Shown: positions 1,911 through 8,842 of the stretch, piece after piece
Position numbering within the stretch: position 1 is the first letter of the stretch
Layout of the letters: each line of letters begins with the position of its first letter
UHGV virus genome: UHGV-0118682
Reading direction: 5' to 3' (one strand)
From: a virus
Length of the DNA stretch: 11,701 bases
Made by a program: the position numbers and the translations under genes
Notes under the pieces: model-generated
What the model was told of the DNA's origin: nothing
Database searches by the model: none
Seen by the model: only the letters and a program-made list of their open reading frames with translations

Positions 1911-2258
1911 TTAACTCAGTGAAACAGTGGTTGAAACTGACGCACCGGTATCGGTACGCACCCCGGTAATATCGACATACATTTCGCCAGTGTCGCCGTG
2001 CTCAAAGCTGATGGATGTAAGCCTGATACGTGGTTCCCACTTCTGGATCGCGGAATAGCACGCCACCATGATTTGCAGCCTGAGCGCCGGGGTTTGTGGC
2101 ATATCAATCAGCGCAGACAGGAGCGAGCCATATTCACGGCGCATTACCCGCGAGCCGACCGGCGTCAGCAGAATGTCGCGCATGCTCTGGCTGATATGCT
2201 CACTGTCACGGATAGCGAGGCCGGTATTGCGGTTCATCCCCATATAACGCGCCGTCAT
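1911..2258 (-). CDS. W: Baseplate protein W (115 aa)
   Basis: ORF track 1911..2258; 115 aa equals P2 gpW length; ATGA overlap with the V stop. Confidence 0.88.
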   Translation of the reverse strand: MTARYMGMNRNTGLAIRDSEHISQSMRDILLTPVGSRVMRREYGSLLSALIDMPQTPALRLQIMVACYSAIQKWEPRIRLTSISFEHGDTGEMYVDITGVRTDTGASVSTTVSLS

Positions 2259-2896
2259 TTAGTGCCCTCCGTCCAGCTCCCGCCCCGTTGCACGCCACCG
2301 TGACCGTGGTCATCAACCTGCACACCGTTTGATTTCAACGTGCCGCCGGTATGTTCGATATTTCCCCGCATGGTGCCGCCTTTCTGCACCTCAAGCGTCG
2401 CCGTCGTCAGTTTGTTGGTGCAGACCACCTCCGGGCTGTCGAGGGTGATGCGGGTTTCTGCTTTCACAAGCACCACCGGCACAGTGGCGGTGATGGACTC
2501 CGATGCCGTCACATCAGCAGTCTTAATGCCACTGACCGTCAGCGCACCGGTTTCCGGCTCATACTCCATAACCGCGCCATCAGGGAACACCACATGCCAC
2601 GCATCCGCCGAGGCAGACGGGGCGGGGTTATCGTCTGAGAAAATCCCCGGCAGCACGAAAGCGGTATCAAGCTCGCCACCAATCGCCAGCAGCAGTACCT
2701 GCTCACCGACCGAGGGAGCCCACCATGTACGCGAACGACCGGCGCGGGTAGTAAGCCAGTTCAGCCATGTAGTCTGGATCCCGCCGCTTTGTACGCGGCA
2801 CAGCCCCTGCACGGTATCGACCTCAGTCACCACACCTGAGCGGATGAGATTGCGAATTGCACGAGCTAGTTCTTGAATGCTGTTTAGTGTGTTCAT
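2255..2896 (-). CDS. V: Baseplate central spike protein V (213 aa)
   Basis: ORF track 2255..2896; N-terminus MNTLNSIQELARAIRNLIR and internal RSRTWWAPSVGEQVL and VCTNKLTTATLEVQKGGTMRGNIEHTGG match P2 gpV as recalled. Confidence 0.9.
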   Translation of the reverse strand: MNTLNSIQELARAIRNLIRSGVVTEVDTVQGLCRVQSGGIQTTWLNWLTTRAGRSRTWWAPSVGEQVLLLAIGGELDTAFVLPGIFSDDNPAPSASADAWHVVFPDGAVMEYEPETGALTVSGIKTADVTASESITATVPVVLVKAETRITLDSPEVVCTNKLTTATLEVQKGGTMRGNIEHTGGTLKSNGVQVDDHGHGGVQRGGSWTEGTK

Positions 2897-3084
2897 GTAG
2901 CAAGAATGACGCAGTTAAAACTATGGGGCTACCGAGGGAAAATTGTTCAGCAATGGGACAACAAACATCGAGGTCTAGACCTTAAAAAAACAGCCTTGTT
3001 CTAGATCGCCCTTCCAATTACACTTGATTTAATCTCGACAGAGATGGAATTCTAAATGGCTAGCTTATAATTCAGGATTGAAAA
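2897..3084. promoter_or_regulatory. Intergenic region upstream of both V (minus) and the cargo ORF (plus); likely holds the cargo promoter and possibly a late promoter for V. Contains TATAAT at 3066-3071, AGGA Shine-Dalgarno at 3074-3077, TTGATT at 3024-3029, and a TGT-N11-ACA dyad at 2944-2960
   Basis: Hexamers read directly from the sequence. TATAAT lies only 13 nt from the cargo ATG, so the true -10 is uncertain. The dyad resembles the TGT-N12-ACA Ogr/Delta-type late activator site but has an 11-nt spacer. Confidence 0.3.
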
Positions 3085-3948
3085 ATGGAAGAATCTAAAA
3101 GAATACGCCAATTAAAAGAAAACCTCATAAAGGAACTACCTTTCTTTCCAAATGAAAAATCAATACGCACTGAACTAGAAAATCAAAGTTTAAATGGGGT
3201 TTTAATCGCTTACCTCCACTGGAAAACAAGAATTGTGCCGACCCGCAGAAGGAGAGTTCATATATATCCAGAAGTAACGAGCGATAAAAGATGGAAAGAA
3301 CTAAAACTTGGTATTCATGGGTTACTGGATAAGGTCAGAAAAGGTGAAGACTTATACCCTCATCTTTCATTGCGCGCACATAAGTATGGCTACACTCCTG
3401 TTGAAAGAATTCGTAATGGAGATGCTGATTCATGGGAAGACAAAGATCAGTTATTAAATACGAAAGGTTTTCATCATTTTCATTTGAGCATGAATATTCA
3501 AAGTACAGGCTTGGCCGAAAGGACAAATAATGTTCTTTTTGCCTTCGTTTCTCGCGACCAGTTTCGTGCTGTGGGGATATTTGATCATAGTGTATTTGAT
3601 AAACCCGATAGTTTAAATGGCATGACTGAGGAACGTGAAAGAATGTGGACCCTGCATGAAAAATACATCACATTCGGAATGAAAGCTGGCACAGTGTATA
3701 TAAACAATCTGATAACAGCATCCGGGCATCCTGTAAATCTTATCATGCTCGCCGATCGTTATGCTGCAATCATCCGAGAATATGACCAGAAGGCGGAAGA
3801 CAGAATTTTTGTAAATGAGCTTTATGCTCAAAGCCCACTTCCCTCTCCAGAAAGGTTTAAATTTGAGTGGCGCATAGAGGGTTTGGATCTTGTTCTTTTT
3901 GATAAAAAAAACAGAGTGGCCTTTAACGTCTACAAAGCTCACATTTAA
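3085..3948 (+). CDS. Hypothetical 287-aa protein on an AT-rich cargo island; opposite strand to the late operon; function unknown (candidate phage accessory/defence gene)
   Basis: ORF track 3085..3948; ATG preceded by AGGA at 3074-3077 (7-nt spacing). Hand counts of sample lines give roughly one-third GC here versus about 60% in flanking phage genes. No P-loop, no long hydrophobic segment, no signal peptide visible. Confidence 0.8.
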   Translation: MEESKRIRQLKENLIKELPFFPNEKSIRTELENQSLNGVLIAYLHWKTRIVPTRRRRVHIYPEVTSDKRWKELKLGIHGLLDKVRKGEDLYPHLSLRAHKYGYTPVERIRNGDADSWEDKDQLLNTKGFHHFHLSMNIQSTGLAERTNNVLFAFVSRDQFRAVGIFDHSVFDKPDSLNGMTEERERMWTLHEKYITFGMKAGTVYINNLITASGHPVNLIMLADRYAAIIREYDQKAEDRIFVNELYAQSPLPSPERFKFEWRIEGLDLVLFDKKNRVAFNVYKAHI

Positions 3949-3964
3949 GCATGTGAATATATTT

Positions 3965-3996
3965 TTCTCTGCTGCTATTAAATTAGCAGCAGAGAA
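3965..3996. terminator. Perfect 13-bp inverted repeat with a 6-nt loop between the convergent cargo ORF (stop 3948) and gene S (stop 4005-4007); putative bidirectional intrinsic terminator
   Basis: ttctctgctgcta (3965-3977), loop ttaaat, tagcagcagagaa (3984-3996); arms are exact reverse complements. On the plus-strand RNA the stem is followed by U-rich AUUAAUCAAUUAUCUU; no U-run follows it on the minus-strand RNA. Confidence 0.5.
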
Positions 3997-4004
3997 TTAA
4001 TCAA

Positions 4005-4457
4005 TTATCTTAGGAAAAGATACTGTAAGACCACTTCCTCCATCAATGTCACTTCATCTTGGTTAAATCCGAGCAACGGGCGCGCCTCGTACTGCACATC
4101 GCGGCTGTTGCGGTTTGGCCGGTCTTTGAGGCCATACTGATGCACCCGCGCCATGCGCTGCACCCTGCCGGTAAACTCCACCACAGCCGAACTGTCGCTG
4201 CCTTTGGCTTTCATAAAACGACTGGTGCGCAGTCTGGTGAACATCTCGCGCTTAATGCGGCCTTTCTTGCTCCGCACAGGCTGGCGCTTTCGCGCGGCAT
4301 ACGGGGTGCCGTCGGGTGCCTGCTGCCGCTTAATTCGCTGTTGCTGGCTGGCGCGCAGCTTTTTCGCAATCTCAGCCGCCATTTGACGACGCGCCGCCGG
4401 TGACAGGCTGGCAATCAGACCGGCAAGGCGCTCCTGCAGCACGGTTAACTCACTCAT
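4005..4457 (-). CDS. S: Tail completion protein S (150 aa)
   Basis: ORF track 4005..4457; 150 aa equals P2 gpS length; start overlaps the R stop; position after R in the P2 order. Confidence 0.88.
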   Translation of the reverse strand: MSELTVLQERLAGLIASLSPAARRQMAAEIAKKLRASQQQRIKRQQAPDGTPYAARKRQPVRSKKGRIKREMFTRLRTSRFMKAKGSDSSAVVEFTGRVQRMARVHQYGLKDRPNRNSRDVQYEARPLLGFNQDEVTLMEEVVLQYLFLR

Positions 4458-7021: not shown

Positions 7022-7771
7022 TTAACCGGCGGTTTTTGCCGCCTTTGGTGGACGCCCGCGCTTTGCTGCCGGTTTGCTGGCAGGTTTGCGCGTGCGCGGT
7101 TTAGTCGTTTTACGGAGTGCGGTCTCTGGCTTTGGCTTCAATGCCCGTTCCAGTCGCTCAATCTCCTTGCGCACACCGGCATTGCGGTCGAGCTGCATCG
7201 CGCGCTGAAACTGCGCCAGCGCCTCTGCATTCATACCGACATCACGCAGGGTCAGGCCTGTCACCTTATGCAGACGGGCGCGCACCATGTCGGGAACGTC
7301 AGCACCGTCGGTCAGGTCGATAGTGGTCTGCAGCCAGGAAAGGTCGACAGACTCACCGGCATCGCGCAGACGCTGCGCGGCAAGCGCCACCTCCTCAACC
7401 AGCATGTAAGGTGTTGTGCGGCGATGGTCAGAGGTGAGGCCGTATTTCAGCGCGTAGGGGGCAATTTCCAGCGCGCCAGCGATATCACCGGCATCGAGAC
7501 GCCACAGCATGACAGTCATGACAATGTCATCCTGCGCACCACGGCCATCAGCCAGCACACCGGCGACCCACGGCGCATAGAACGGCAACAGCTCGCGCTT
7601 TTTCGCGGCTTTCAGTTCGTTTGAACGGATGGTTTTTAACGTGCGACGGTCATCGGCCAGCTTTACCAGCATCTGCTCGTAGGCGGTTGCATGGCGCAGC
7701 GGGGCTTGTTCCCGCTGCGCGGCTTGAGAGGCCGAGACCCGCATCATGTGACGCTGTGCGGGGCTCGTCAT
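7022..7771 (-). CDS. M: Terminase small (endonuclease) subunit M (249 aa)
   Basis: ORF track 7022..7771; positioned between N and L as in P2; basic Lys/Arg-rich C-terminal tail; GGAG Shine-Dalgarno upstream; length close to P2 gpM (about 247 aa). Confidence 0.85.
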   Translation of the reverse strand: MTSPAQRHMMRVSASQAAQREQAPLRHATAYEQMLVKLADDRRTLKTIRSNELKAAKKRELLPFYAPWVAGVLADGRGAQDDIVMTVMLWRLDAGDIAGALEIAPYALKYGLTSDHRRTTPYMLVEEVALAAQRLRDAGESVDLSWLQTTIDLTDGADVPDMVRARLHKVTGLTLRDVGMNAEALAQFQRAMQLDRNAGVRKEIERLERALKPKPETALRKTTKPRTRKPASKPAAKRGRPPKAAKTAG

Positions 7772-7774
7772 GGT

Positions 7775-8842
7775 TTAGGCTCCGCTTTCCGGTGCTGCAG
7801 GTGCGGTGAAATCGCCCAGGGTGATGTTTTCCAGCAGGCACCCGGCGGCATACGCCTCGACCACATAGTCGATATTCATCGACTCGTAGTTTTCCACGCG
7901 GTCTTTTTTCGGGTTTTCATCAATGCTGCGGCGGTGGCTCTCATCCATGAAATAGATAGAGAGGTTTTCCAGTGTGGTCACTAACACGGCATTCGCCGGG
8001 AAGTACGGCACACGCACAGCAGGCAGGTTGCCGATTCGCTTCTGGCTGATGATGATATCTGCCGCAAGCGCCTCGCTGTTTTCCTGCGGCTTGTTCACCA
8101 GCGGGAAATATTTGTCGGCCAGCAGCTTACGGCCAACGATGGCAACGAGTTTCGGGTCATCCTGATAAACCTCGTCAATCAGGTTGTTGGTCGCATCCAT
8201 CACCAGCGCGTCGAGGTTCTCATAGTCGCCGTTTCGACCGACACGAATCACTGCCGAAACGACCTTACCGTCAGCATCGGTGATATTGCTCATCACACGC
8301 GTCGGGGCTTCATTGCGGTATTTCTGCAGCCAGCCGACGGCCACATCCTGCAGCATCGGATTTTTGGTGCGGTCAGAGGTGGCGGCACGGGTGGTACCGT
8401 TAAAACCGGCCATGATGAAATCGAGCGCCTGACGCTTGACAATGGCGTCGCGGATGCGGCGCTGGAAGTCCTGAAAACGCGCCCACAGGTCGAGGGTTTT
8501 ATATTTCAGATGGAAGTCAAAGTTAATCTGGTCGCACTCGTACTTGTTGGACTCAAGCGCGGTGAAGTCTGCGGTCTTACGCTCATCATCGCCCGAGGTG
8601 TCGGTCGTGCTGGCGATAGTACCGGTCACACCGACGCCGATTTTCTCACCCTTCATTTCTGCGACCGGCAGAATGTTAATCGTCTGCAGAAACGCGGACG
8701 ACTCCTGCACTTTGTTCATCAGCGTTTGCGTGACGGACGGCTCGACAGTGAATTTTTTACTGACATCATCAGTGCTGATGCCGTTCAGCTCAGCGACGCG
8801 GGTCAGATAGGCATTGAACTTAAAACGGGTTTCCGGGCGCAT
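7775..8842 (-). CDS. N: Major capsid protein N (355 aa)
   Basis: ORF track 7775..8842; N-terminus MRPETRFKFNAYLTRVAELNGI resembles P2 gpN as recalled; AGGAAA Shine-Dalgarno upstream; lies between O and M. Confidence 0.9.
   Translation of the reverse strand: MRPETRFKFNAYLTRVAELNGISTDDVSKKFTVEPSVTQTLMNKVQESSAFLQTINILPVAEMKGEKIGVGVTGTIASTTDTSGDDERKTADFTALESNKYECDQINFDFHLKYKTLDLWARFQDFQRRIRDAIVKRQALDFIMAGFNGTTRAATSDRTKNPMLQDVAVGWLQKYRNEAPTRVMSNITDADGKVVSAVIRVGRNGDYENLDALVMDATNNLIDEVYQDDPKLVAIVGRKLLADKYFPLVNKPQENSEALAADIIISQKRIGNLPAVRVPYFPANAVLVTTLENLSIYFMDESHRRSIDENPKKDRVENYESMNIDYVVEAYAAGCLLENITLGDFTAPAAPESGA

Follow-up and report, generated by a model that had tools for sequence, protein, structure and literature searches.

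The window analysed here is a stretch of 11,701 nucleotides from the virus genome UHGV-0118682. This study concerns its open reading frame (ORF) at 3085–3948, whose product of 287 amino acids (aa) is probably a phage-defence toxin and does not represent a new type of system. The window corresponds to the late region of a P2/186-type prophage. On the minus strand it carries I, J, W and V, followed by S and R, the genes for lysis, and then L, M, N and O, and the terminase gene of the prophage is on the plus strand. An identical prophage is annotated in Escherichia coli Ecol_545. The 287-aa gene lies between V and S (the S/V or “orf30” slot) and is the sole cargo of this slot in the window prophage. 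With a cut-off of E ≤ 1e-3, the protein search found 157 homologues, of which the best 120 are nearly all 282–292 aa long with 52–100% identity. Judged from its sequence, the gene is under purifying selection, with a dN/dS of 0.13–0.21 against close homologues. Because many homologues have a similar length and the dN/dS is in this range, the ORF is a genuine gene rather than a product of chance. Its RefSeq label is hypothetical protein (WP_078207423.1). The composition of the translated ORF gave an isoelectric point of 9.26, a grand average of hydropathy (GRAVY) of –0.57 and zero cysteines. Among its residues, L (10.1%), R (8.4%), E (8.0%), K (7.3%), N (5.6%) and D (5.6%) occur most often. No Walker-A pattern was found in the protein. 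A transmembrane segment is not expected, since the highest 19-residue Kyte-Doolittle mean is only 0.97. A signal peptide is not expected either, because the N-terminus, MEESKRIRQLKENL, is hydrophilic, although no dedicated signal-peptide predictor was used. By its composition, the protein is soluble and basic. A preliminary description, made from the sequence without database searches, had proposed a single 287-aa prophage cargo gene whose hydrophilic product has no P-loop, transmembrane segment or signal peptide. The ORF was confirmed by the ORF call, the homologues and the dN/dS, and the character of the protein was borne out by GRAVY, hydropathy and the motif scan. The two motifs quoted there were also located, GFHHFHLS at aa 128–135 and RAVGIFDH at aa 161–168 (nt 3565–3588).

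The family of the protein was sought with several profile collections. Scans against Pfam, NCBIfam and PHROGs gave no match to the 287-aa protein even at E ≤ 10. When 48 relatives were scanned against Pfam, nothing beyond scattered noise appeared, PDB sequence searches with family profiles gave nothing meaningful, and a tblastn search against 50,697 phage records found no relative. In PADLOC, the protein matched both PD-T4-7 models (PDLC04065 and PDLC04066) with E-values of 4.8e-9 and 1.5e-7. The same two models matched all 48 family members tested, with a best E-value of 1.8e-14. Therefore, the earlier statement that the protein belongs to no recognisable family holds for Pfam, NCBIfam, PHROGs and PDB sequences, but not for PADLOC. 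Searched with a profile, a set of 1.84 billion representatives (50% identity) yielded 1477 proteins at E ≤ 1e-3. None of them has a precomputed Pfam family, and no functional name appears among those whose source name was shown. The distant representatives, of about 300–320 aa, match the PD-T4-7 hidden Markov models (HMMs) near full length (positions ~25–304 of 337, E to 2e-24). An hhalign comparison of the 287-aa family with an 18-member PD-T4-7-like clade gave a probability of 100% and an E-value of 5.7e-54 over 283 columns. Since 283 columns are aligned and this intermediate clade spans the PD-T4-7 HMMs, the homology to PD-T4-7 is full-length with a diverged C-terminal half. These profile comparisons make it very likely that the 287-aa protein is a member of the PD-T4-7 superfamily. 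The 287-aa proteins are a distinct divergent clade of it with lengths of about 287 aa, and not a new category of system.

PD-T4-7 is a single 352-aa gene of E. coli UMB0103 (RRN43039.1) obtained from T4 selection and described as “RelE toxin-like” (Vassallo et al. 2022, Nat Microbiol; PMC9519451). Its domain call was an HHpred match of 51% probability to YafO_toxin over residues 118–164 (Vassallo et al. 2022). According to its authors, PD-T4-7 gives abortive-infection defence (PMC9519451). In the literature searched, there is no published account of its mechanism. The window gene is like PD-T4-7 in being a partnerless single gene and in lying on mobile or accessory DNA in E. coli. The N-terminal halves of the two proteins are homologous and share the W-x-DKD, HHxHL and D-H-x-x-F motifs. 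On the other hand, PD-T4-7 has 352 aa and the window protein 287, and the identity of the intermediate PD-T4-7-like clade to the window protein is about 25–30%. The C-terminal domain of the window clade is strongly diverged and carries an SGHP motif which is particular to this clade. The window gene lies in the S/V slot of a P2-like prophage. A search with the PD-T4-7-like sub-alignment returned no E. coli protein of 352 aa.

The structure of the 287-aa protein was predicted with AlphaFold2 from a 48-sequence alignment. The model has a predicted local distance difference test (pLDDT) value of 85.5 and a predicted template modelling (pTM) score of 0.84, with disorder only at residues 200–214. 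Structure searches with the model returned a run of RelE, YoeB, YafQ, HigB and ParE toxins. The top Foldseek matches were HP0894, YafQ, YoeB and ParE2, with a probability up to 0.90 and a TM score of ~0.6 (target-normalised). About 120 columns are aligned against targets of 88–90 residues, and therefore the query has an insertion of about 35 residues. The order of elements in the predicted core is strand 57–60, helices 62–65 and 70–85, an insertion of ~40 residues at 86–127, and strands 129–133, 149–155 and 159–167. This predicted core is a compact alpha/beta BECR fold. In the model, the region of about aa 57–172 thus has, in all likelihood, a RelE/YafQ-type (BECR) fold. The core is flanked by two further regions. 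The N-terminal region (aa 1–56) shows conserved LPFFPN, W46, R49, R54 and R56, and its predicted helices could possibly contact RNA or the ribosome, or share in autoinhibition. The C-terminal domain (aa 174–287) has no counterpart among solved structures in the structure searches, and it is proposed to be an autoinhibitory or sensor module. At the sequence level, neither the protein nor the 48 relatives are members of the Pfam toxin families (RelE, YoeB, HigB, YafQ, YafO and others) at E ≤ 10. YafO membership was rejected by hhalign against a 13-sequence alignment built from E. coli K-12 yafO, for which the probability was below 1%. The sole piece aligned with YafO was LLNTKGFHHFHLS against LIKFERVAHIHLA (the HHFHL and AHIHL segment), which is suggestive and not significant.

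Conservation was evaluated across 72 sequences down to 21% identity. Only D121, H131, H133, H168 and W262 are invariant, and W46, R49, R56, D119 and G214 are near-invariant. H131 and H133 are the second and the third histidine of the cluster and lie in the predicted strand 129–133. H168 is found directly after the strand 159–167. The second strand of the toxin fold bears K52 and K54 in RelE and H50 in YafQ. By this analogy, the GFHHFHLS strand may be equivalent to the second strand of RelE and YafQ. The acid-base catalysis of YafQ is operated by H50, H63, D67 and H87 (PMC4652777). D121, H131, H133 and H168 are accordingly placed here as a candidate active site of the window protein, by analogy with these toxins.

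The 287-aa gene is solitary. An all-against-all comparison of 28 loci from different taxa showed no conserved neighbour ORF within 1.5 kb. Of the ORFs in the upstream 188 bp, only two are 20 aa or longer (42 and 32 aa). In the Enterobacter copy, neither they nor the upstream DNA are conserved. Tandem repeats are absent from 2800–4100, and Rfam gave no match at E ≤ 1 in the window. Because no conserved neighbour or upstream ORF, no tandem repeat and no Rfam match was found, neither a protein nor an RNA antitoxin is seen for this gene. A type II toxin-antitoxin module was rejected as there is no adjacent conserved antitoxin gene, and a type III module was rejected as there is neither a repeat RNA nor an Rfam match. 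In Shewanella (locus 7459–7938, 159 aa) and in Amphritea (locus 7597–7893, 98 aa), a small same-strand ORF without a Pfam match lies 60–110 bp upstream of the homologue. The two were rejected as a common partner, for they are mutually unrelated in the neighbour comparison and have no equivalent in the window.

The gene is also mobile. A homologue of only 63% identity occupies the same V/S slot in Enterobacter P2-like prophages, and the Serratia homologue lies with a P2 remnant (Ogr) and insertion sequence (IS) fragments. The homologue of Vibrio vulnificus (56% identity) is a single-gene cassette of a chromosomal integron, in which 12 attC-like repeats are spaced ~1 kb apart (locus 1–15415). 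The DarT/NADAR, Phd/ParE and AAA_21/DUF4435 cassettes are found in the same array. The same protein is encoded on two further V. vulnificus contigs, where the genes around it differ, and a HEPN cassette is present on another V. vulnificus contig with the same gene. Homologues were found on seven viral contigs as well. On one viral contig (positions 5893–8580), the homologue adjoins, on the opposite strand, a protein of 895 aa bearing HATPase_c at its C-terminus and one of 324 aa without matches. This pair may form a further accessory or defence module. In Shewanella, Amphritea and Aeromonas, the homologues are in plain chromosomal sites. The family ranges over Gamma-, Beta-, Alpha-, Zeta- and Deltaproteobacteria and Nitrospiraceae. 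That the gene stands alone, as first proposed, is thus supported by the 28 loci, by its being the sole cargo of the slot and by the single-gene integron cassette.

The 287-aa gene is a horizontally acquired prophage cargo gene (“moron”). Its guanine-cytosine (GC) content is 0.385 and its GC at third codon positions (GC3) is 0.33. The GC of the rest of the window is 0.576, and the GC3 is 0.65–0.70 in the phage genes V, S, J and N. Therefore, the low GC and GC3 against the window and the flanking phage genes indicate that the gene is foreign to the phage. The homology between phage 186 and the window ends at 2908 and restarts at 4061. Against five other E. coli slot variants, it ends at 2896–2912 and restarts at 4051–4069. 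Because the breakpoints of phage 186 and the five variants nearly coincide, the variable segment is placed at about 2909–4060. The right breakpoint is inside gpS, and therefore the last ~18 residues of gpS vary together with the cargo. The slot is empty, with V and S adjacent, in phages 186 and PSP3 and many relatives. In related E. coli prophages, it contains nothing, a pentapeptide-repeat protein, a HIT-family protein with a hypothetical protein, a protein of 261 aa that weakly matches UPF0489, a hypothetical protein of 347 aa or two small hypothetical proteins. At least six different cargoes or contents thus share common breakpoints in the E. coli S/V slot. The 287-aa gene was found in the slot in 7 of 5426 complete genomes, the seven being E. 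coli. The proposal that it is prophage cargo is borne out by the deviant GC, the conserved phage flanks and the empty or replaced slot in related phages.

The slot of P2 itself is occupied by Orf30, a non-essential gene product encoded on the opposite strand in low-GC DNA, like other slot cargoes. P2 and the window have the same layout of S, terminator, opposite-strand cargo, pV activator site and V. Kinship between the two cargoes was rejected, since P2 Orf30 and the 287-aa protein are unrelated (BLASTP E = 27). None of the other S/V-slot cargoes matched a PADLOC model, and therefore the slot is a cargo hotspot which is not callable as a defence hotspot. The published hotspot surveys searched, which cover the old/tin, Z/fun and tail/cI loci, do not mention orf30 or the S/V position as a hotspot. 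In Ecol_545, one of these seven E. coli genomes, the IS21-family element ISEc12 splits the major capsid gene of the prophage (locus positions 24878–28531), and the cargo region is 100% identical. This prophage is defective because its major capsid gene is interrupted. An intact cargo in a defective prophage is consistent with retention for the benefit of the host.

The features of the locus are collected in Table 1. No sigma-70 consensus promoter was found by a consensus scan of 2850–4060. The hairpin between the convergent cargo gene and gpS has a folding energy of –22.5 kcal/mol (z = –4.7), and none of 200 shuffles folds equally well. Its position matches the annotated O-operon terminator of P2, and it is likely a transcription terminator or insulator. 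A simple terminator scan missed this hairpin because its T-tail is weak on both strands. The annotated pV activator site of P2 has the same TTGT-N11-ACAA form, at the same distance from V, as the dyad upstream of gpV. By this comparison, the dyad is likely an Ogr/B-type activator site of the late promoter of the V operon, and it would belong to the phage and not to the cargo gene. In P2, pV transcription begins at the V start codon, and the same spacing here therefore implies a leaderless V operon in the window too. The upstream region of the cargo gene also has an A-rich spacer between two TCTAGA palindromes at 2974–3006 (GGTCTAGACC ... TTCTAGA).

Table 1. Features of the S/V slot and of the 287-aa gene (positions in the window)
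Feature	Position	Strand	Basis or remark
Coding sequence, 287 aa, divergent protein very likely of the PD-T4-7 superfamily	3085..3948 (including stop codon)	+	ORF call, ATG start
N-terminal helical region, aa 1–56	3085..3252	+	Predicted helices 5–17, 25–32 and 36–47; conservation
Likely RelE/YafQ-like (BECR) toxin-fold core, aa 57–172	3253..3600	+	Predicted structure, by elimination and topology
D121 codon in W-x-DKD motif, candidate catalytic or His-tuning residue	3445..3447	+	Invariant; analogy with YafQ D67
GFHHFHLS, aa 128–135, predicted second toxin-fold strand	3466..3489	+	H131 and H133 invariant
H168 codon, candidate general acid	3586..3588	+	Invariant; position analogous to YafQ H87 or YoeB H83
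C-terminal domain, aa 174–287, three helices and three-stranded sheet	3604..3945	+	Prediction; SGHP 213–216 and W262 conserved
AGGA, likely Shine-Dalgarno, 6 nt upstream of ATG	3075..3078	+	Read from sequence
Variable cargo segment of S/V slot, including last ~56 nt of gpS	2909..4060	.	Homology breakpoints; low GC throughout
gpV (baseplate spike), left slot anchor	2255..2896	-	ORF call and annotated prophage
TTGT-N11-ACAA dyad, centre 56 bp upstream of gpV start	2943..2961	-	Sequence and P2 comparison
Perfect 13-bp stem with 6-nt loop between convergent cargo gene and gpS	3965..3996	.	Folding
gpS (tail completion / virion morphogenesis), right slot anchor	4005..4457	-	ORF call and annotated prophage

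The following mechanism can be proposed for the 287-aa protein. In the lysogen, the N-terminal helices and the C-terminal domain would hold the nuclease inactive. Sensing of a superinfecting phage would release the nuclease. Once active, it would cleave mRNA, and like RelE and YafQ it would probably do so on the ribosome. Translation would then stop, and the infection would be aborted with the loss of the infected cell. From the homology to PD-T4-7, an anti-phage role seems reasonably likely. Ribosome-dependent mRNA cleavage, which is argued by analogy with the RelE-type toxins, is a tentative assignment that falls a little short of an even chance. The whole combined explanation, that is a PD-T4-7-type cargo toxin with a RelE fold which is autoinhibited and acts through abortive infection, is judged slightly better than even.

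Several points weigh against this explanation, and some of them favour other functions. The defence role is drawn from homology and genomic context. The PADLOC match covers aa 23–168 against profile positions 16–171 of 333, which is ~47% of the model. Because only about half of the PD-T4-7 model is covered, standard defence finders may overlook the gene. The full-length tie to PD-T4-7 runs through the models and the intermediate clade, and not through RRN43039.1 itself. The E-values of the Foldseek matches are not significant, the best being 0.15, and the structural scores are only moderate. Furthermore, the homologues of Aeromonas, Shewanella and Amphritea are in ordinary chromosomal neighbourhoods where neither mobile nor defence genes are visible. 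The last point would suit a RelE-fold toxin with a non-defence job, such as prophage addiction or growth arrest under stress or SOS, whose extra domains serve as a built-in antitoxin. The same fold and conserved residues would be expected for such a toxin, and fused toxin-antitoxin single genes are common (PMC11980606). However, the one relative that has been studied experimentally was recovered as a phage-defence gene, and the movement of a lone cassette among phages, integrons and chromosomes is typical of defence cargo. In addition, one polypeptide cannot do classical post-segregational killing by differential stability. A non-defence toxin is therefore regarded as rather improbable. A cargo gene without toxicity is given a similarly low probability. 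It would act in counter-defence, in lysogenic conversion or in the regulation of a helper phage or satellite, with the RelE-like fold as a scaffold. The other slot cargoes (the pentapeptide-repeat protein, the HIT-family protein with a hypothetical protein, the UPF0489-like protein and P2 Orf30) are not recognisable defence genes, and this speaks for such a cargo. Nevertheless, the homology to the PD-T4-7 models is consistent throughout the family (48 of 48), and the strict conservation of polar residues points to catalysis. Since the family is also found outside phages, a function linked to P2 biology is unlikely.

Two other activities were weighed. The BECR domain might poison DNA gyrase in the manner of ParE, or bind another target without catalysis, instead of being an RNase. 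Such a ParE-like action appears quite improbable. A HEPN-type abortive-infection RNase was the hint of the preliminary description, which had pointed to the His cluster and to the R-x6-H spacing in RAVGIFDH (aa 161–168). The spacing is present in the window copy. However, R161 is not conserved, as over 90% of the family have histidine there, and the invariant residue of the pair is H168. The segment is also a β-strand in a predicted α/β fold and not part of the all-alpha four-helix fold of HEPN. The structure prediction and fold search which that description had asked for returned RelE, YoeB, YafQ, HigB and ParE toxins and no HEPN protein. HEPN was rejected on these grounds, and its probability is very slight. 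The attention given to the His cluster was well placed, as H131 and H133 are invariant superfamily-wide, and only its link with HEPN was withdrawn.

The PD-T4-7-type toxin proposed here can be compared with other known systems. RelE, YafQ, YoeB and HigB are ribosome-dependent type II mRNA interferases of the BECR fold. In the window protein, this fold is part of 287 aa, with an N-terminal extension of 56 aa, an insertion of ~40 aa and a C-terminal domain of 114 aa, and there is no adjacent antitoxin gene. CapRel is a prophage-encoded fused toxin-antitoxin, whose C-terminal domain both blocks the toxin and detects a phage protein. The window protein would be alike in its logic. It is one prophage-borne polypeptide, in which an N-terminal toxin would target translation, a C-terminal domain would be non-catalytic, and the outcome would be abortive infection. 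The toxin of CapRel is a RelA/SpoT-like tRNA pyrophosphokinase, which is unrelated to the RelE-like fold. CapRel is an analogy and not a sign of membership. Cami1 is a CRISPR-associated, cA4-activated, RelE-like ribosome-dependent RNase, which has a CARF sensor and needs CRISPR signalling. In contrast, no CARF or nucleotide-sensor domain was detected in the 287-aa protein. A bolder proposal would join two ideas. The protein would be a self-contained fused toxin-antitoxin sensor, made of a ribosome-dependent RelE-type RNase and a C-terminal domain of unseen fold which holds the RNase off and directly binds a phage protein, as in the logic of CapRel. The S/V slot would be a hotspot whose other cargoes, among them the pentapeptide-repeat, HIT-family and UPF0489-like proteins, are undescribed conflict systems too. 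Taken jointly, the two ideas are speculative and rather unlikely.

PD-T4-7 is a validated defence gene, and the window clade supplies a conserved, compact and confidently modelled relative of it across Proteobacteria. The four residues D121, H131, H133 and H168 and the domain boundary near residue 173 can be used for the dissection of toxin and inhibitor. The gene also highlights the S/V “orf30” slot, in which unrelated cargo is swapped at fixed breakpoints.

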